From an uncultured Acidobacteriota bacterium (lineage in GTDB: Bacteria > Acidobacteriota > Thermoanaerobaculia > Multivoradales > UBA5704): a stretch of 64,000 nt of DNA. The stretch spans positions 5,632,001 through 5,696,000 of the forward strand of contig CAVYRF010000002.1 of the NCBI GenBank assembly GCA_963770895.1. Reading direction: 5' to 3'. The position numbers and the translations under genes were made by a program. Positions 44,984 through 52,892 of this stretch are shown piece after piece. The notes below the pieces were generated by a model that was not told the DNA's origin, did not search any database, and worked only from the letters and a program-made list of their open reading frames with translations. The first letter of the stretch is position 1, and every line of letters begins with the position of its first letter.

Positions 44984-47607
44984 GCCGCCGAACGCCCCCG
45001 CAGCGGTCGATCGGCCTGTTTGCGCCGGCGGGATCGGAGGACCCCACGCGGCAGGACAACCTGGGCGGGGAGGTGAGCCCGGAAGACTCGGCGCGCGAAC
45101 AGGCGGCGGCGGCCGGCGCCGTCGCGGGCTATGTCGACCTGGCCCTGCCGCTGCCGCTGCCCGACGCGCTGACCTATGCGGTGCCGGCGGGGTGCGATGC
45201 GCTGGCGGTGCCCGGCGCGCGGGCGCGGGCGCCGGTCGGCAAGCGCCGGCTGGTGGGGGTGATCGTGGCGCGGCGCCCGGCGCCGCCGCCGGGGGTGGCG
45301 GTGCGGCAGCTCGAGGCGGTCCTCGACCGCGAGCCGGTGCTGGGCGAGGACCTGCTGGATCTGGCGCGCTTCACCGCTTCCTACTACCTGGCGCCGCTGG
45401 GCGAGGTGCTGCGCTCGATGCTGCCGGCCGACCTGGCGCCCTGGGGAGACCGGCGGCTTCGCCTCACCAACCAGGGCGCCCTGTCGCTGCCGCGCGCCGG
45501 GGACGCCGGCGCCTGCGAGGCGGCGATCATCGAAGCGCTGCGCGAAGGCGGGCGGATGGCGGTGTCGGACCTGCAGGTGAAAGTGGGCCTGCCGGGTTTC
45601 GAGGCCGCCCTGGCGGCACTCGAACAGAGCGGCCGCATCGCCGGCGAGGACGGCAGCACCCGCTCGACGCGCTACGTGCCGGCGGTCGCCCTGGCGCCGG
45701 AAGTCGCGCCCGAGGCGGTCGGCCGCTCGGCGCCGGCCCGCGAGGTGGTGCAATACCTGGCGGCGGTGGGGCGGCCGGCCACCAGCGCCGAAGTGATGGC
45801 GGCCGTCGGCTGCGGCGCCGGCGTCCTGCGGCGCCTGATCGCGCGGGGCGTCCTGCGTCAATTCACCCAGGTCGAGCGGCTGTCGCTGGACCGCCACCGC
45901 CTGGCGCCGCTCGCGCCGCCTGGGCCGGCGGGGACGCTGGAGCCGGCAGCGCCAGGTTTGCCCCCGGCATCCCCCCTGGACGCGGCGTCGCCGTGGCAGC
46001 TGCGCGCCGACCAGGCGGCGGCCGTGGCGGAGCTGGTCGCGGCGATCGAGCAGCGCCGGTTCCTGCCGGTGCTGCTGCAGGGCATGACCGGCTCGGGCAA
46101 GACCGAGGTCTACCTGCGTGCCGCGGCGGCGGCGATCGAGCGCGGCCGCTCGGCGATCCTGCTGGTGCCCGAGATCGCCCTGGTGCCGGCGCTGGCGCGC
46201 GAGGTGCAGGCCCGCTTCGGCGATCGCCTGGCGATCCTGCACTCCGGCCTGGGGGCAGGCGAGCGCAACCAGGAATGGGAGCGGGTCCGCCAGGGCGGGC
46301 CGATGGTGGTGCTGGGGCCGCGCTCGGCACTGTTTGCGCCGGTGGCAGACCTGGGCCTGCTGGTGGTGGACGAAGAGCAGGACTCGGCCTACAAGCAGGA
46401 GGTCACGCCGCGCTACCAGGCGCGCGACCTGGCCCTGGTGCGCGGCCGCGCCGCCGCCGCCGCGACGCTGCTGGTGTCCGCCACCCCCAGCCTGGAGAGC
46501 CGCCACAACGTCGCCCTGGGCAAGCTCGGCCTGCTGCGCCTGACCGCCCGCTTCGGTCATGGCGCCTTGCCAACCGGCATCCTGGTCGACCTGCGCCAGG
46601 AAGAGGTGGCGCGCCGCCGCCCCGGCGAGGTGCAGTTTTCGGCCCGCCTGCGCGCCGAGATCGCCGCCACCCTGGAAGCGGGGGAGCAGGCCATCCTGCT
46701 GCGCAACCGCCGCGGCTACTCGCCCATGCTGCTGTGCCGCGCCTGCGGCGAGGCGATGCGCTGTCCCGACTGCGGCCTGCCGCGCACCTACCACCGCAGC
46801 CTGCGCCGCCTGCTCTGCCACTACTGCGGCCAGGCGGTCAACGCGCCCCAGGTCTGTCCGGTCTGCGGCGAAAGCGCCCTGGAGCCGATCGGCGCCGGCA
46901 CGGAGCGGGTGGAGGAGGACTTTCAGGCGCTCTTTCCGGGCGTCCCGGTGGACGTGCTGGACCGCGACAGCACCCGCCGGCCGGGCGGCATCGCGGCGGT
47001 CCTGGCGCGCTTCGAGCGCGGTGACGCGAGGGTGCTGATCGGCACTCAGATGGTGTCCAAGGGGCACCACTTCCCGAACGTCGCGCTGACCGCGGTGCTG
47101 ACCGCCGATTCCTATCTCAGCTTCCCCGACTTTCGCGCCGTCGAGCGCACCTACAACCTGCTCACCCAGGTGGCCGGCCGCGCCGGCCGCGGCGACCGTC
47201 CCGGCCGCGTGGTCATCCAGACCTTCCACCCCGAGCATTACGCCATCCAGGCCGCCCTGTCCGGTGACGACGACGCCTTCCTGGCCGAAGAGATGCGCTT
47301 CCGCCGCGTCTTCCACTATCCGCCCTTCACCCGCATGGCGCAGCTCCTGGTCCACGACCGCAACCGCGACCGCGCCCACGCCGCCATCGAAGACCTGGCC
47401 GCCGCCCTGTCCCAGCACACCGCGGGCCGCGCCGTCCGCCTCACCGGCCCCGCCCCCGCCCCCTTCGAACGCCTGCGCGGCGAATGGCGCTACCAGCTCC
47501 TGGTCCGCGGCGCCTGGAGCGACGTGCACCGCCTGCTGAGCGAAGCCCTGCCCAAGACCCCAGCCTACGACCTGACGGTGGATATCGACCCGCAGCAGCT
47601 ACTTTAG
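44980..47607 (+). CDS. priA: Primosomal protein N'
   Basis: GMTGSGKTEVY, LVPEI, DEEQD, SATPS, CxxC Zn motifs, QVAGRAGR. Confidence 0.96.
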   Translation: MSRRTPPQRSIGLFAPAGSEDPTRQDNLGGEVSPEDSAREQAAAAGAVAGYVDLALPLPLPDALTYAVPAGCDALAVPGARARAPVGKRRLVGVIVARRPAPPPGVAVRQLEAVLDREPVLGEDLLDLARFTASYYLAPLGEVLRSMLPADLAPWGDRRLRLTNQGALSLPRAGDAGACEAAIIEALREGGRMAVSDLQVKVGLPGFEAALAALEQSGRIAGEDGSTRSTRYVPAVALAPEVAPEAVGRSAPAREVVQYLAAVGRPATSAEVMAAVGCGAGVLRRLIARGVLRQFTQVERLSLDRHRLAPLAPPGPAGTLEPAAPGLPPASPLDAASPWQLRADQAAAVAELVAAIEQRRFLPVLLQGMTGSGKTEVYLRAAAAAIERGRSAILLVPEIALVPALAREVQARFGDRLAILHSGLGAGERNQEWERVRQGGPMVVLGPRSALFAPVADLGLLVVDEEQDSAYKQEVTPRYQARDLALVRGRAAAAATLLVSATPSLESRHNVALGKLGLLRLTARFGHGALPTGILVDLRQEEVARRRPGEVQFSARLRAEIAATLEAGEQAILLRNRRGYSPMLLCRACGEAMRCPDCGLPRTYHRSLRRLLCHYCGQAVNAPQVCPVCGESALEPIGAGTERVEEDFQALFPGVPVDVLDRDSTRRPGGIAAVLARFERGDARVLIGTQMVSKGHHFPNVALTAVLTADSYLSFPDFRAVERTYNLLTQVAGRAGRGDRPGRVVIQTFHPEHYAIQAALSGDDDAFLAEEMRFRRVFHYPPFTRMAQLLVHDRNRDRAHAAIEDLAAALSQHTAGRAVRLTGPAPAPFERLRGEWRYQLLVRGAWSDVHRLLSEALPKTPAYDLTVDIDPQQLL

Positions 47608-47647
47608 GCCTGGCTGAGGTTGCTCCAGGAGAGGACCGCTCGGGACT

Positions 47648-49561
47648 CTAATGTTGGAGCGCCCATGTCAGGTCAGTGTTGTTCGACGGCGGGTATTGTT
47701 TCAGGTATTCCTGCGGAATCCTTGCCAGCTCGGCTCTCACATCTGCCGTGGTGTGAGGCCCTCCGGCGCGCGCGATGACGGCCAACGCCGTCGCCTTGAG
47801 ATAGCGTGTACGGTTGAGGTCCGCCGATTCACTATTGAACCAGCGCTCGGTCTCGCGATCGCCTTCATTGTTGTCGCGAGCTGCCAGCTTGGAGATCTCC
47901 GCCATGATCCCCAGGGCAGAGTCCAGCTCCTGGAGCGCCAAGGTTGCGTATCGTAGCCGAGAGCGATCGTTCTCCGGGTTCGGCCTGTCTTGCACCAGGA
48001 AGGTGCGGGCGACCAGCAGCAGCGCCCAGCCTTTGTATTCGCGTTGAATGATTCGCCTGGGAGGCGTGAGACGGATACTGTTCACGCTGTCGATCCGAGT
48101 GGCAAGGCTTTCGCCCTCCTGCCGCACATGTTCAGGCCAACCCGGATTGGCTGCTTCGAAGTCGCCGCGAAGAACCTGGATATCCTTCATATAGGAGATC
48201 ACACGGTAGTCCTCGGCGGTCTTTTTCAGGTAGTCAGACTGGGTCCGATACAGCCCGATGATCAGCGCGGCACTGACCACGGCGAGCCCTGCCACCGCCC
48301 AGATCAGGCCGCGCCGTCTCAGTTGATCGCGCCTGCGCACCCGGCTCTCGAGCACGATCGGCGTCATGACTTCGTGGATCAGCTCCACCTGTGTCTGGTG
48401 GAAACGTTCTTCGAAGCGCAGGAGCCTGCGATCGACCAGCCGGTCCAGCGCTTCGCGGGTCACGCCCTGACTGCCCACCGCTTCCGCCAGGAACACGCTG
48501 GCCGGGTTACCGGCAGGGGTGACCATGCGGCTTTCGATGAGTGAGCGCACCGGCCTGCCGGAATCCACCAGGCAACGTTCATAAAAGGCTGCCAGGATCT
48601 CGTGCGAAGAGCTCAGCACCAGGTTGGAGCTGATCGTCTCCAGCCGCTGCAACTTGCGCCGGCTGTTGAGCTCACGGCAGAAAAGGCTCAGGATCGCCGG
48701 TTCGATCTCCAGCGTTTGCCGGTCGTTGGCCGTGTCCAGCTGTACGTCCTGCCGCCTTCCGGCGACGACCTTGAGGATCTCGGATGCCGCCTGCCGGTCG
48801 ACCAGGCCGATGCGCGGTTTCAGGATGGCATCCAGCGCCTGGTCGCCATTCATGGGCAGCAGGCGATATCGATTTTGCATCAGCGACGGCATGCGCGCCT
48901 GCAACTCGACGAGGTCGGCCAGGAAGTCTTCGCGCAGGCACAGCAGCACGCGCACCTTCTGCCGGTCGAATGGGAAGTCCAGGTCCTGGTCGGTCCGCTC
49001 CACTCGTTCGCGCACCGCTTGGGGGACCTGGTTTTCGATCAGATCCGCCAGCTCGACAAGGAACGAATCGACCCCGCCGGCATACTGCCTGCCGTGGGTG
49101 AAGATCTCTTCGAACGGGTCGAAGACCAGGAGCGGTGTCAACAGCCGATTGCGGCGATCGAAAAACGGAGTGCGGTGGAAGTACTCCCAAAGCGTCTGGT
49201 CGGCGGCCAGCGGCGGCACCTCGACGTCGTGCTCACTGGCAGCCTTGCCACAGGCGGCGCCGACCTGCGCGACGAGGCCCCGGTCGGCGGTGAAGTCCAG
49301 CCGGACCGGGATCGGCAGGATACCCGCCTGGCGCAGGAGGGGGTAAAGACCGGCGTTGAGCAGCGAGGTCTTGCCCAACCCGGAGCGGCCGAACAGGACG
49401 GTCAGGGTCTCGCGCTGGACCAGGGTGAACAGGTCGCGGCTCTCGCTATCGCGGCCGAAGTAGAAAGCCCGATCGGCCTCGCCAAATGCCTGCAATCCTG
49501 GATAGGGATCTTCGGTGCTGACACCAGGTACGGCAGCGACCTGTGGTCCGGAGGAAGTCAT
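47648..49561 (-). CDS. nSTAND1-like NTPase with single TM and C-terminal helical domain
   Basis: PYPGL.AF...FYFGR, Walker A GRSGLGKTS, FDPFEE, LRED, ELIHE, TM GLIWAVAGLAVVSAALIIGLY. Confidence 0.85.
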   Translation of the reverse strand: MTSSGPQVAAVPGVSTEDPYPGLQAFGEADRAFYFGRDSESRDLFTLVQRETLTVLFGRSGLGKTSLLNAGLYPLLRQAGILPIPVRLDFTADRGLVAQVGAACGKAASEHDVEVPPLAADQTLWEYFHRTPFFDRRNRLLTPLLVFDPFEEIFTHGRQYAGGVDSFLVELADLIENQVPQAVRERVERTDQDLDFPFDRQKVRVLLCLREDFLADLVELQARMPSLMQNRYRLLPMNGDQALDAILKPRIGLVDRQAASEILKVVAGRRQDVQLDTANDRQTLEIEPAILSLFCRELNSRRKLQRLETISSNLVLSSSHEILAAFYERCLVDSGRPVRSLIESRMVTPAGNPASVFLAEAVGSQGVTREALDRLVDRRLLRFEERFHQTQVELIHEVMTPIVLESRVRRRDQLRRRGLIWAVAGLAVVSAALIIGLYRTQSDYLKKTAEDYRVISYMKDIQVLRGDFEAANPGWPEHVRQEGESLATRIDSVNSIRLTPPRRIIQREYKGWALLLVARTFLVQDRPNPENDRSRLRYATLALQELDSALGIMAEISKLAARDNNEGDRETERWFNSESADLNRTRYLKATALAVIARAGGPHTTADVRAELARIPQEYLKQYPPSNNTDLTWALQH

Positions 49562-50937
49562 GAGAACCCCCGGCTCCTCAGCTGCCGAGCTTTGATCGCC
49601 TCTTTGACCTGCTGGATGAAGTCCTGTGTGGGGCGGCCCTGCGGCGCAACGTGCCATTGAAGATCGTGGAACTCTTTGGGAATTCCGTTTGCCCCCTGCT
49701 CAATGTCGTCGATGGCGACGGGTAGGATGAATCGAGCCTCAGGGTCGACACCGCGATTCAGAGCCGATTTCCACTCGTTTCGATAGTGGCCTTCGTCGCG
49801 CCGGGCGGCCTCTTTCGACAGAAGCGGCAGGAACAGCGCACAGTCCGCAATGCGGCTCGGTATGGTGAGCGGCCACGCGTCACCTGTCGGCAGGCTATGT
49901 CTGTCCATCCACACTTCAACATTCTGGCTCACCAGAGCGGTGTACAGATTCTGTGCCGCCACCAGGTCCTCATTGGCATAGCTGAGGAACACCTTATTGC
50001 CTGCGGTCCGGCCGCCGCCGCTCGCCGCGCCGGGCGCAGACCCCGGTATGGGCGACGAGCCGCGCGGGCTCTCCTGCTGCCAGCGCGCGTAGAGCTCTGC
50101 GACGAAGGGCACCGGGTCGCCTGCGGGATGCGTCTCGATCCTGCACTGCCGCAAGAAGAGAGCGAGATCGAGATCGAGCTTGGCGCGGTGGTCGATCACG
50201 AATTTGGGTTCTTCCGAGGATAGAGGGCGATTGACCAGCATGCGCAGGAAACACCGTGCCAGCCCGTCGGGGAAGCCGCAACCGAGAAACAGCAAGGTGC
50301 GGTTCCGCAGCGCTTCGAACAGCGCAGGCAGCGTGCTTTCGCGCCGGTGCAGAGCATGCAGGAACTCCAGCGCGTCTTCCTCGGTGACCACATAGCCGCC
50401 CAGGCGGGAGATCCGGCCCAGGATCTGGAACACCTGGGCGTGCTCCAGGGCCCCGGGGGCACCGGAGAGGTCTTCGCGCGCCGAAGAGGTGGAGAAGCTC
50501 AACCTGCGGGTCTGCGGTTTGCCGCCGTAGCGCTCGCCGTCGATGGCGTTGGCGAGGAGCTCGTCGAAGGTGGTGCTGATGAAGAGCCGGAAGTCTGAGA
50601 TCGCGGCAAGTTGACGCAGCGGCTCGGGAACCGGCCACGTCCGTTCCTCCACCAGGCCCCGCAGGGTGGAATGCAGTTTGCGTCGAAGACCGCCTTGCTG
50701 CAGATAGGCGACCGCCACCTGGTTGAGGTCGACTGAAAACGGGAGTCCCGTGGTGTCGATGCTCAAGTCTCTCACCAGGCGCTGCGCGAGGTAGGGATCG
50801 AGGAGGGTCTGCTGTCCATCGATCGAGACGGTAAGGAGCTCCTTGCCGACGATCGGGACCACCTCACCGTCGCGGACCAGCTGCAAAAGGCCGGCCCAAT
50901 CGAAGGCTTGGCTCAGCGCCGAAGGCTCTCCGGTCAC
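49558..50937 (-). CDS. SIR2-like + TIR domain protein
   Basis: VVPIVG, ISTTFD, LLFLGCGFPD; TIR KVFLSYA.ED, VWMD, RNEW; ATGA-coupled to the STAND gene. Confidence 0.85.
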   Translation of the reverse strand: MTGEPSALSQAFDWAGLLQLVRDGEVVPIVGKELLTVSIDGQQTLLDPYLAQRLVRDLSIDTTGLPFSVDLNQVAVAYLQQGGLRRKLHSTLRGLVEERTWPVPEPLRQLAAISDFRLFISTTFDELLANAIDGERYGGKPQTRRLSFSTSSAREDLSGAPGALEHAQVFQILGRISRLGGYVVTEEDALEFLHALHRRESTLPALFEALRNRTLLFLGCGFPDGLARCFLRMLVNRPLSSEEPKFVIDHRAKLDLDLALFLRQCRIETHPAGDPVPFVAELYARWQQESPRGSSPIPGSAPGAASGGGRTAGNKVFLSYANEDLVAAQNLYTALVSQNVEVWMDRHSLPTGDAWPLTIPSRIADCALFLPLLSKEAARRDEGHYRNEWKSALNRGVDPEARFILPVAIDDIEQGANGIPKEFHDLQWHVAPQGRPTQDFIQQVKEAIKARQLRSRGFS

Positions 50938-51250
50938 GTCATCGGTCCGCTTCTCTCCGCTCGAGGTCACCGTCGAATTTTTACAGTATATTTGCAATTC
51001 TAGCAGGCTGCGGCGACCGTTGGAAGAGCGCGCGGTCCGATCGGCAGGCTCCCAGGAGCGGGCGGAGGAGGCGCGCGCCGGGGACGGATGACTCCCCTTG
51101 CGTCCACCTACCCGCGGTGTGCATGGCGGACCCAGGCAGCTCGCGGCGTCGCGGTCCAGGAGCGCCAAAGCACCCCCATCTAAAGAGGCGACTGCACAAT
51201 GGCACGGCGGATCGATGCAGTGCGGTGCGTAAGTGCATGAGTGCATGAGG

Positions 51251-51279
51251 TTGACAGAAGAAACTGAAGCAACTAACAT
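51251..51279 (+). promoter_or_regulatory. Sigma70 promoter preceded by gtgcatga tandem repeat
   Basis: TTGACA-17bp-TAACAT; gtgcatga x2 at 51233-51248. Confidence 0.6.
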
Positions 51280-51508
51280 CCGGCAGTTTACCCACACACT
51301 TCGCCGTGTTCACCACCTTCGCCCCCGGCTCAACCAGAACCCGCGCCAGCGTGTCGAAGGAAGAAGTGTGCCTGATGCTTGCGCCAGGATAGGCCATAAG
51401 GGTATGCATGTATACTTTGGTGCCCAGGGTTCGCGGCGAGGTCGGGACGGTAGTTCTTGACATCGCAATATATATAAACAAGAATTTAAACAAGGAGGTG
51501 AACAAAGG

Positions 51509-51664
51509 ATGTCCAATGCATTCAAGGCGGTCCTGCTGCTCCTGGGTTTGGCCGGGCTTTTCGCCTTTGGCCTCTCTGCCCAAACCGACACGAACGCAAA
51601 TGAGAGGGCGCATTCTCCGCACACCAGCCAGGATCCGAACGGCGGCAATGGCGGTCCCCTCTAG
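51509..51664 (+). CDS. 51-aa secreted peptide (not in ORF track)
   Basis: aaggagg and aagg upstream; MSNAFKAVLLLLGLAGLFAFGLSA|QTDTNANERAHSPHTSQDPNGGNGGPL. Confidence 0.7.
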   Translation: MSNAFKAVLLLLGLAGLFAFGLSAQTDTNANERAHSPHTSQDPNGGNGGPL

Positions 51665-51705
51665 ACTCAATAGATCTCGATCGCTGGAATTCGACTAGGC
51701 CCGAT

Positions 51706-51760
51706 GGCCCCCAAAGGCAAGTCCCCGGTCGTTGGCCGAGGATCTCCGTTGGGGGCCTTG
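51706..51760 (+). terminator. Hairpin after small peptide gene
   Basis: ggcccccaa...ttgggggcc. Confidence 0.45.
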
Positions 51761-51941
51761 TGCGTCCAATCCCGGATCCCGTCCCATCGCGCGGTCACCG
51801 GCTGGAAGGCGGATTGAGCACCGGTTGACGCACCGGTTGCGGCCGTTGGTTCATCGGCCCGGCAGGGGAGCCGGAGCCGGCCCGTAGAGCCGCGCGCGGC
51901 CTCCCCCGAGCCTCAGTTTTGTGTTACCTTGGCCGCGGCTT

Positions 51942-52892
51942 ATGCCGACCGCCGACGCCTTCGACGAACCTCTCGTCCAGCTCCGCCGCAGGATTCAAGA
52001 GCTCGAGCGCTTTCCGCAGGGGAGCGGTCAGGACAAGGAGCTGGATCGCCTGCGGGCGACGCTCAAAAAGACCACCTCAGAGGTGTATGGCGGCCTGACG
52101 CGCTGGCAGAAGCTGCAGGTGGCCCGGCATGCCGAGCGGCCGTACACGCTCGACTACGTGCGGTACCTGATGACCGATTGGGTGGAGCTGCATGGCGACC
52201 GCGCGTACAGCGACGACGCGGCGATCGTCGCCGGCCTGGCTACCTTTGCCGGGCGCAGCGTGGCGGTGATCGGCCATCAGAAGGGGCGGGACACGCGCGA
52301 GCGCATCCATCGCAACTTCGGCCAGCCGCGGCCCGACGGCTACCGCAAGGCGCTGCGCATCATGAAGCTGGCGCAAAAGTTCGGCCGCCCGGTGCTGACC
52401 TTTGTGGACACCGCCGGCGCCTACCCCGGCATCGACGCGGAAGAGCGCGGCCAGGCCGAGGCGATCGCCCGCAACCTGCTGGAGATGTCGCACCTGGAAG
52501 TGCCGATCGTGGTCACGATCACCGGCGAGGGGGGCAGCGGCGGCGCCCTGGCGCTCGGCATCGGCGACCGCGTCTACGTGCTGGAGTACGGCACCTATTC
52601 GGTGATCTCGCCCGAAGGGTGCGCCGCCATCCTGTGGAAGGATCAGGAGCGCAAGGCCGATGCGGCGGAAGCCATGCGCCTGGCGGCCCCGGACCTGCTC
52701 GACCTGGGCATCGTGGACGGCATCATCGCCGAACCGCCCGGCGGCGCGCACACCGATCCGGAGGCCACCTGCCAGCGGGTGGGTGACACCCTGGCGGCCG
52801 CTCTCGACGAGCTCGAGCAGCTGAGCGTCGACGAGCTGCTGGCACGCCGCTACGACCGCTTCCGCTCGCTCGGCGCGTTCGACCAGCGATGA
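51942..52892 (+). CDS. accA: Acetyl-CoA carboxylase carboxyltransferase alpha
   Basis: ELHGDR, GYRKA, DTAGAYPG, GEGGSGGA, SVISPEGCAAILW. Confidence 0.97.
   Translation: MPTADAFDEPLVQLRRRIQELERFPQGSGQDKELDRLRATLKKTTSEVYGGLTRWQKLQVARHAERPYTLDYVRYLMTDWVELHGDRAYSDDAAIVAGLATFAGRSVAVIGHQKGRDTRERIHRNFGQPRPDGYRKALRIMKLAQKFGRPVLTFVDTAGAYPGIDAEERGQAEAIARNLLEMSHLEVPIVVTITGEGGSGGALALGIGDRVYVLEYGTYSVISPEGCAAILWKDQERKADAAEAMRLAAPDLLDLGIVDGIIAEPPGGAHTDPEATCQRVGDTLAAALDELEQLSVDELLARRYDRFRSLGAFDQR

Follow-up and report, generated by a model that had tools for sequence, protein, structure and literature searches.

In a 64,000-nucleotide stretch of DNA from an uncultured Acidobacteriota bacterium (G000:C2:5632001-5696000; hereafter, the window), an insert of lower GC content between priA and accA encodes a SIR2-like/TIR protein, an nSTAND1 NTPase that continues into a transmembrane helix and a 200-aa C-terminal domain (hereafter, the tail) and, divergently, a 51-aa peptide with a signal-like start. 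The tail and the peptide appear to represent an undescribed ectodomain family with a cognate secreted-peptide family, here plugged into a transmembrane NLR-like SIR2-like/TIR system. We propose that they probably form a periplasmic peptide-receptor pair that gates the transmembrane STAND protein, which would in turn fire a TIR NADase. The first-pass annotation of this DNA had suggested a split NLR-like system with extracytoplasmic sensing and its own peptide ligand or inhibitor, and this proposal is supported by comparative, structure-prediction and expression evidence, none of it experimental.

The annotation as an nSTAND1-like NTPase coupled to a SIR2-like/TIR gene was confirmed by profile matches and gene overlap. 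The open reading frame (ORF) at 47648-49657 (-) matched PF20703 (E = 5e-31; 109.1 bits, gathering cut-off 27.1; 340 of 379 profile positions), and the P-loop motifs Walker A GRSGLGKTS (K64) and Walker B LLVFDPFEE can be read in its translation. Its likely ATG, with GAGGAG 12 nt before it, overlaps the TGA of the upstream gene as ATGA. The ORF of that upstream gene (49558-51297, -) matched SIR2_2 (E = 4e-10; 40.4 bits, cut-off 24.5) and TIR_2 (E = 1e-16; 61.9 bits, cut-off 28). The tripartite STAND layout, i.e., N-terminal effector, NTPase and C-terminal repeat array, was not found here: the NTPase module starts after only about 18 residues, the effector is encoded by a gene of its own upstream, and the C-terminus consists of a transmembrane helix and one 200-aa domain. 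The predicted helix contains the strongest 19-residue hydropathy window of the protein (residues 419-437; 2.52), behind which about 200 residues have no Pfam match.

NTPase matches were present in 23 of 41 related genomes. The nearest relatives are 53-57% identical, and this similarity is limited to residues 1-457; residues 420-636 match unrelated proteins instead, one of them encoded elsewhere in the same genome. A SIR2-TIR homologue (34-47% identity) lies directly upstream of the NTPase gene in all 11 distinct loci compared, and all 11 relatives have a strongly hydrophobic 19-residue segment (2.01-3.09) right behind the NTPase module. Because of this shared segment, the single transmembrane helix, which the first pass had already seen, is best regarded as a predicted trait of the SIR2-TIR/nSTAND1 clade and not as a peculiarity of the window gene. 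The C-termini behind the segment vary, with TPR arrays (L017 and L018), WD40 repeats (L019) or a short end (L020). Two more SIR2-TIR/nSTAND1 pairs are encoded in the same genome (G000:C2:5506282-5508899 and G000:C1:425035-427790), with a tail or peptide match at neither.

The comparison of tail loci with these relatives shows with which part of the system the peptide travels. Peptide genes were found beside the tail in 9 of 12 assessable tail loci (1-2 each, within about 760 bp), among them L013, L014 (two), L015, L026 (two, convergent), L031 (downstream), L036 (two) and L037; three further tail loci were not assessable, either for want of flanks (L033 and L035) or as a fragment (L038). At the SIR2-TIR/nSTAND1 loci with TPR, WD40 or short ends, a peptide gene was found in none of the four assessable, nor did these four contain any other small ORF with a Shine-Dalgarno (SD) sequence and a signal-like start. 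Since the peptide occurs in most tail loci and in none of these relatives, it appears to be tied to the tail domain and not to the SIR2-TIR/STAND pair. A conserved small secreted ORF, for which homologous loci were to be searched, was thus found at most tail loci but at none of the four assessable SIR2-TIR/STAND loci with other ends. Absence of the peptide from homologous loci, which had been offered as a refutation, would have misled if read literally, because the peptide follows the tail.

The same association was seen within the genome. The genome has one other tail gene, and a weak tblastn match to the 51-aa peptide (E = 0.21) was located directly upstream of it; two small ORFs with signal-like starts lie at this place and end in HVTIYPNGGTNGPSGNQ and HTIYPNGGSDGPSDK. 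A peptide motif drawn up from these and the other loci occurred 5 times in the six frames of the 8.16-Mb genome, and the 3 occurrences near a stop codon were the three peptide genes. The second tail gene belongs to a paralogous cassette (G000:C2:2113743-2115933; L021, 3744-5757), in which the two peptide genes are followed by a gene for a protein with a transmembrane helix, the tail and three more transmembrane helices, and without an enzyme domain.

For a non-circular check, a profile built from only the three peptides of this genome was compared with the ORFs of at least 20 residues in 436,540 bases. It ranked the peptides of L036, L037, L014, L026, L015 and L013 (E = 6e-19 to 1e-3) above all unrelated ORFs (the first at 0.015), and missed the second peptide of L014 and the peptide of L031. 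Among 92 genomes of the family, all 9 strong peptide matches (E ≤ 1.5e-12; next best, 0.003) were in the 5 tail-bearing genomes, and none of the 87 tail-less genomes had a strong match. Tail and peptide similarities co-varied over 9 loci (Mantel r = 0.58, reached by 6 of 5000 permutations), and the closest relative of the window tail (L037; 63% identity) also has the closest peptide (47% identity).

The small signal-peptide genes look real, as judged from their sequences. In the window, the SD sequence AAGGAGGT lies 9 nt ahead of the ATG, a promoter-like site (TTGACA-17-AAGAAT) precedes it, and the product ends in TSQDPNGGNGGPL. GGAG or GAGG is found ahead of the ATG in 10 of 13 peptide genes, and each of the 13 peptides combines K/R in its first 9 residues with an uncharged stretch of 12-23 residues and small amino acids at candidate -3/-1 positions. 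Among 5.77 billion proteins, a family of 32 members (48-69 residues) was found, unnamed or named "hypothetical" and without a Pfam domain, and NCBIfam had no match to any of the 13 peptides. The consensus end of the family is (I/F)(Y/F)P-x-GG-(S/T)-D-G-P-P, with two recurring types. The first-pass annotation had described the window ORF as unannotated, with an SD sequence and a signal peptide; the SD sequence, the signal-like start and the coordinates held, whereas the protein collection contains an entry identical to the 51-aa product (P0156), which some gene caller must hence have called. In a soil metatranscriptome (run X7), a contig identical to the window covers only the peptide gene, at a depth of 5.3; it is the only contig of that run on the insert, and the other 27 bins had zero cover.

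The loci with two peptide genes (L014, L026, L021 and L036) retain the same two types despite different effectors and gene orders. Type one starts with MSRxLK and ends with IYPAGGSDGPP, and type two starts with MPYGLK and ends with SPQGIYPNGG(T/S)DPP. The variable position of the motif (51632-51646 in the window) is mostly Asn or Asp before Gly-Gly. Succinimides form most readily at Asn-Gly and Asp-Gly, and a peptide ligand that ages spontaneously in this way is conceivable, but Ala, Val, Thr and Glu are found at the position as well.

The tail is predicted to be a compact TPR/14-3-3-like solenoid, with no claim to family membership. Its AlphaFold2 model is all helical, with a predicted local distance difference test (pLDDT) score of 91.5. 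The best VIA-align rows were designed helical repeats, 14-3-3, the Csx29 TPR and the sNASP TPR at Z = 12-14, a range common among helical repeats, and the Atlas neighbours were TPR-like at 0.87-0.91. Foldseek gave no match to the model at E ≤ 0.001, the tail profile had no match among PDB sequences, NCBIfam gave none either, and the 13 tails compared with Pfam gave nothing relevant and no TPR family at E ≤ 1. The first-pass description of a helical tail in place of WD40/TPR arrays is therefore right for the sequence, but the tail itself is TPR/14-3-3-like in its predicted fold.

A profile of six tails (A1), searched in 1.84 billion proteins, matched 196 representatives at E ≤ 0.001 and 37 at E ≤ 1e-30. 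Pfam domains were scanned in 68 of the 150 listed representatives, and 20 of the 68 contained another Pfam domain, i.e., lipase-like alpha/beta hydrolase (n = 7), TIR (n = 3), nucleotide cyclase (n = 3), caspase (n = 2), AAA_35 (n = 2), CarboxypepD_reg (n = 2), nSTAND1 (n = 1, with a ParA-like N-terminus), Ser/Thr kinase (n = 1) and DUF4349 (n = 1); the counts total 22, as P0080 and P0088 carry two each. The remaining 48 had no other Pfam family. The tail also stands behind a caspase in L014 and behind a TIR domain in L026. From these architectures, the tail appears to be a module that moves between proteins, anchored in the membrane and placed behind TIR, caspase, lipase-like, cyclase, kinase and STAND domains. 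It is rare among the genomes searched: the profile was found in 5 of 92 family genomes, and among 401 genomes of the phylum and 401 of the class (8 candidates scored per genome) there was no match outside the window's own genome. A search with a three-tail alignment found 2 genome loci and 8 metagenome loci, of which two repeat the genes of others (L029 those of L026, and L030 those of L014). In a short ORF of a 375-kb metagenome contig (L038, 3348-3659), 36 residues from the start of a tail remain, probably as a decayed copy.

Several features of these proteins fit a tail outside the cytoplasm. In all 7 representatives with a cytoplasmic enzyme domain ahead of the tail, this domain and the tail are separated by 1 or 3 hydrophobic segments, and an odd number of helices also precedes the tail in the window protein, L014 and L026. 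A hydrophobic segment lies no more than 70 residues ahead of the tail in 104 of the 127 representatives that retain the domain start; K/R residues average 2.73 on the N side of the last helix versus 1.71 on the other, with the N side richer in 55, tied in 30 and poorer in 19 (n = 104). The lipase-like hydrolase forms have one N-terminal hydrophobic segment and no helix ahead of the tail. TIR-TM-tail proteins (TM, transmembrane helix) with adjacent secreted peptides, wired as in Toll-like receptors, were seen in L026 (937-2097; the same genes as L029), P0006, P0012 and P0115. Two tail proteins have motif-like C-terminal ends 15-20 residues past the domain, SHFTNGGDDPP in L034 (3498-4112) and RPNPGTVGPP in P0011, and these ends could be tethered ligands. 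The predicted fold of the L034 extension is uncertain (pLDDT about 62), and this locus has no separate peptide gene; a scan for fused motifs across the 150 listed representatives found only P0011.

Co-folding, which the first pass had suggested for the peptide and the C-terminal domain of the STAND protein, gave a pass and docked the conserved peptide end on the tail. The inputs were the tail (A1) and peptide residues 20-51 (A3), with custom alignments, so the calibration of the pass mark (58 of the 80 solved complexes reach it, as do 2 of the 110 mismatched pairs) is only rough. The three runs scored 0.79, 0.70 and 0.35 (median 0.70; best control 0.02) and shared at least 63% of contacts, with a partner pLDDT of 49-58. 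The predicted interface consists of peptide residues 39-43 and 45-51, i.e., the conserved end, and is centred on S142, D144, N146, R147, Y150 and L151 of the tail (tail S142, D144 and R147 are S579, D581 and R584 of the NTPase). Of the invariant polar or aromatic tail residues, a subset chosen post hoc, 7 of 13 are in contact (E32, W75, W137, S142, D144, R147 and Y182; p = 0.002).

On the effector side, the TIR domain is likely the enzyme and the SIR2-like domain likely an adaptor to the NTPase. When 11 homologues are aligned, the N-terminus falls about 20-25 residues ahead of a conserved FDW, which is compatible with either candidate GTG start. The TIR profile of these homologues matched PDB TIR chains (E down to 1.5e-9). 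TIR enzymes depend on a catalytic glutamate, and the Glu of the R-N-E-W motif is invariant (E397 in A4 numbering); it aligns with the E of KEL in 8j8h_B, and is two residues off the YEL glutamate in the alignments with 7uxr and AbTIR. The catalytic residues of SIR2 are an Asn (TTN) and a His (HG). In a weak profile alignment with 7uxt_B (E = 0.17), TTNYD faces sTTFD and KLHG faces h-l-l-G, where the window has STTFD and QILG, and by the same alignment the canonical Asn and His are kept in none of the 11 homologues. The SIR2-like domain thus seems to be without both residues, and it is for this reason that we take the TIR domain as the enzyme.

Taken together, the insert probably encodes a three-part, ligand-gated, transmembrane NLR-like switch. 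The 51-aa product would be exported by Sec and its signal peptide removed, and the C-terminal end of the mature peptide would dock in the TPR-like groove of the tail in the periplasm, a step to which both the locus comparison and the co-fold point. One helix would anchor the tail at the end of the cytoplasmic nSTAND1 NTPase, so that occupancy of the tail, passed through the helix, may control nucleotide-dependent oligomerisation of the NTPase. The assembled NTPase would then activate the separately encoded, translationally coupled SIR2-like/TIR protein, whose TIR domain would likely cleave NAD+ and arrest or kill the cell. As to the sign of the signal, we lean slightly towards a guard role: the cell itself would make the peptide as an "all is well" ligand, and the switch would be released once this ligand is lost, cleaved or displaced, because an activator of the cell's own making, if it drove a death effector, would kill the cells that produce it. 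The peptide could be lost when the envelope is breached or when infection blocks its synthesis or export. That the whole family constitutes Toll- or NLR-like bacterial surface receptors, in which a self-made peptide in a periplasmic TPR-like groove silences TIR, caspase, lipase or STAND outputs and its loss means cell death, is a tentative generalisation that we consider possible and no stronger.

A number of observations weigh against this reading. No peptide gene was found near the tail in 3 of the 12 assessable loci (L016/L028, L032 and L034), although the tails of L032 and L034 are 74-79% identical to peptide-bearing ones. In the window, 3.3 kb separate the peptide gene, which is divergent, from the tail-coding part, whereas six loci have it just upstream on the same strand, and the window peptide is a divergent family member, with DP in place of YP. 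The A3 peptide profile used for the 92 genomes was trained on the matches that it recovers, and any two linked genes would be expected to co-vary and to occur in the same genomes. Besides its rough calibration, the co-fold includes one run at 0.35 only, the peptide's own fold is uncertain, and resemblance to solved TPR-peptide complexes, of which there are many, may account for the pass; the full set of invariant tail residues shows no enrichment at the interface (8 of 33; p = 0.17), the polar and aromatic ones having been picked after the fact. Topology and signal peptide calls come from hydropathy and charge heuristics only, and in P0075 and P0088 a caspase lies C-terminal to the tail with no hydrophobic segment between, so that there the caspase would be periplasmic or the tail cytoplasmic. 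The RNA support is one contig from one run that shows neither strand nor ends, and it may be DNA carry-over. No system model of PADLOC-DB 2.0 matched the NTPase better than E = 0.001 (the best match was mad8, E = 0.0011 over 46 residues), the peptide had no match there, and the TIR part gave generic TIR matches only; any role of the clade in phage defence is putative. With no effector domain in 48 of the 68 scanned tail proteins, the main role of the module may be signalling and not immunity.

This last point bears on the strongest competitor, in which the receptor-ligand pair is the same and the peptide is an activating density or kin signal, as in RRNPP/arbitrium, and not a guard ligand. The pair would then serve general extracytoplasmic signalling, and instead of phage defence the STAND/TIR output could be regulated dormancy, cell death in development or a nucleotide signal. 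The presence of the tail on cyclases and a Ser/Thr kinase, besides the many forms without an effector domain, speaks for it, as do the signal peptide and conserved extreme C-terminus, which is the propeptide layout of Phr/AimP-type signals, and the two conserved peptide types in four loci, which suggest signalling specificity. Yet a self-made activator acting on TIR, caspase and lipase-like effectors would kill producers at high density, and at about 27 residues the mature peptide is large to pass porins unless it is processed further; we regard the combined proposal as rather unlikely, if worth keeping in view. Linkage by itself would explain the co-occurrence and co-variation if peptide and tail were co-inherited without being ligand and receptor, the peptide then being a single-pass membrane partner that is not cleaved, an aid to folding or insertion, or a factor for the tail module akin to an immunity protein. 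In that case the uncharged stretch of 12-23 residues might act as a membrane anchor, and the three tail loci without a nearby peptide gene fit as well. However, the conserved part of the peptide is its polar C-terminus and not the hydrophobic segment, it is exactly this C-terminus that the co-fold puts on the tail, and the pairing persists while gene order and strand vary (upstream, downstream, convergent and divergent), which makes mere co-inheritance improbable.

The caspases directly behind the tail in P0075 and P0088 would be explained by a cytoplasmic tail, i.e., an ordinary intracellular STAND sensor or oligomerisation domain with the hydrophobic segment as a peripheral anchor. The odd helix counts in 7 of 7 proteins, the positive-inside bias, the signal-anchored hydrolase-tail forms and the signal-peptide-bearing partners all oppose this, and we give it very little credence. 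That the 51 codons between the genes stay open by chance is less credible still: the ORF is short, and overlapping chance ORFs abound in high-GC DNA, but a 32-protein family with conserved ends, the SD sites, the genome-wide specificity of the motif and the RNA-library contig stand against it. The periplasmic peptide-receptor pair remains the reading we prefer.

Compared with known systems, the window system shares with the nSTAND1 conflict systems (nSTAND1 was named by Kaur et al. 2021, PMC8195603) and with NLR-like STAND defence in bacteria (Avs and bNACHT) a central nSTAND1-clade STAND NTPase, a TIR effector and a C-terminal helical sensor. Unlike in all of these, as far as the available text describes them, the effector is here a separate upstream gene, a transmembrane helix is predicted to place the sensor outside, the sensor is one compact 200-aa domain without a repeat array, a dedicated secreted peptide gene is present, and no PADLOC model fits. 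Periplasmic sensors on STAND-type proteins have been predicted for targets of diversity-generating retroelements (bioRxiv 10.1101/2023.09.22.558884, available in part). The PCTM/TIR-ParA preprint (bioRxiv 10.64898/2026.10.19.760177, likewise in part) describes an effector with a type-II membrane ParA NTPase bearing periplasmic TPR or other sensors; its authors predict the sensing of periplasmic events, and TIR-ParA dyads are linked to the FxsAB modified-peptide system. In the available sections, this resembles the window in its upstream effector gene and single-pass NTPase with a variable periplasmic sensor, possibly TPR, and the tail representative P0011 is a ParA-like/nSTAND1-TM-tail protein. 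It differs in that the NTPase of the window is nSTAND1 without ParA and the insert has no maturase gene; those sections, supplements aside, mention neither the tail domain nor a peptide partner that is unmodified and exported by Sec.

In the RRNPP systems of Firmicutes, a propeptide acts together with a TPR receptor in the cytoplasm (PMC10075063 and PMC9765709, each in the part available). On the basis of these texts, the likeness to RRNPP/arbitrium lies in adjacent genes (9 of 12 tail loci), a propeptide with an N-terminal export signal, a receptor of TPR type (here by predicted fold) and an informative C-terminus. RRNPP/arbitrium receptors, as described there, are cytoplasmic, occur in Firmicutes and their phages, read an imported peptide and control transcription (helix-turn-helix) or phosphatases, whereas the receptor proposed here is membrane-anchored, predicted to be periplasmic, from Acidobacteriota and without a Pfam TPR match, with STAND, TIR, caspase, lipase-like, cyclase and kinase outputs. 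The available parts of the literature on related systems mention neither the tail domain nor the peptides and contain nothing closer, though preprint supplements may hold relevant architectures.

Two further comparisons concern the TIR proteins. In the manner of Toll with Spaetzle and of Toll-like receptors, the TIR-TM-tail forms (L026, P0006, P0012 and P0115) are predicted to combine a cytoplasmic TIR domain, a membrane span, an extracytoplasmic solenoid and a self-encoded secreted ligand. Unlike in Toll, the TIR domain is N-terminal, i.e., in the opposite orientation, and the solenoid is alpha-helical and not of leucine-rich repeats; the likeness is in wiring only, with no evidence of common descent. 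Thoeris ThsA/ThsB resembles the window effector in its SIR2_2 and TIR_2 matches and invariant TIR Glu, and differs in that the SIR2 Asn and His aligned to TTN/LHG of 7uxt_B are not kept here and there is no SLOG or Macro sensor. Matches to the Thoeris models were far below their cut-offs.

The features of the insert are listed in Table 1.

Table 1 Positions of the insert and its features in the window.
Feature	Positions	Strand	Remarks
Low-GC insert, 4.3 kb, three genes	47608..51920		Between priA (end 47607) and accA (start 51921)
nSTAND1 NTPase-TM-tail gene, 637 aa	47648..49561	-	PF20703; likely start ATG 49561
C-terminal tail, NTPase residues 438-637	47651..48250	-	Predicted periplasmic TPR/14-3-3-like helical domain, proposed peptide receptor
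Single transmembrane helix (predicted), NTPase residues about 417-437	48251..48313	-	RVRRRDQLRRRG just before; hydropathy, and same place in 11/11 relatives
SIR2-like/TIR gene	49558..50970	-	Start uncertain, GTG 50970 or GTG 50937; SIR2_2 50134-50586, TIR_2 49651-49992
Divergent intergenic region, 538 bp	50971..51508		Most AT-rich part of the insert; two + strand promoter-like sites, 51251-51279 and 51457-51485
RNA-library contig, 258 nt	51443..51700		Run X7, soil metatranscriptome; identical to the window, depth 5.3
Pre-peptide gene, 51 aa	51509..51664	+	Predicted signal peptide about residues 1-24; mature part QTDTNANERAHSPHTSQDPNGGNGGPL; conserved C-terminal motif residues 39-51 (51623-51661)
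GC-rich hairpin after the peptide gene	51707..51758	+	GGCCCCCAA...UUGGGGGCC; possible terminator

The block of lower GC content between priA and accA, as first annotated, is evident in the GC profile: values across 47500-51999 were 0.56-0.68, compared with 0.72-0.80 in priA and 0.68-0.78 in accA/recJ. The priA-accA junction is a variable site. The gap between the two genes is 13 bp in G003 (same genus) and about 80 bp in G011, and other inserts occupy it in G002 (3.5 kb, encoding a 913-aa repeat protein and a 155-aa secreted protein) and G016 (1.5 kb, with a radical-SAM-like 346-aa ORF and a 102-aa ORF). Since the genes are adjacent in the first two genomes and separated by different inserts in the others, the peptide gene and the operon appear to have come in together, as one inserted block. 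Flanking repeats that would mark the insert were not found, just short chance-like pairs, and an Rfam search of the insert gave no match at E ≤ 1. The hairpin with which the first pass had the peptide ORF end does exist, but it is weak: the minimum free energy of 51660-51780 is -47.8 kcal/mol (z = -1.97; 8 of 200 shuffles as good), and there is no clear U tract. In four DNA runs of one study (X1-X4), 29-49% of the insert's words were present; these runs may come from the source sample and are not independent support.

Known bacterial NLR-like sensors are described as cytoplasmic and as binding phage proteins, and immune NTPases that span the membrane in the manner of receptors are, to our knowledge, so far a prediction only. 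Here, a membrane span is predicted for an entire clade of nSTAND1 proteins coupled to SIR2-TIR, and one member has an undescribed ectodomain with a genetically linked candidate ligand, so that what bacterial death switches sense outside the cytoplasm becomes open to direct test. One binding result would be informative for many architectures, i.e., the TIR, caspase, lipase-like, cyclase and kinase forms and the Toll-like TIR-TM-solenoid proteins. If the peptide is indeed a silencing ligand, the system would be an envelope-integrity or "missing-self" alarm, in which paired peptide types give lineage specificity and the peptide could be lost when the outer membrane is breached, when host synthesis or export is shut off, or when an invader cleaves it. 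With binding shown, peptide-TPR communication would also reach past Firmicutes, into the periplasm of soil Acidobacteriota.

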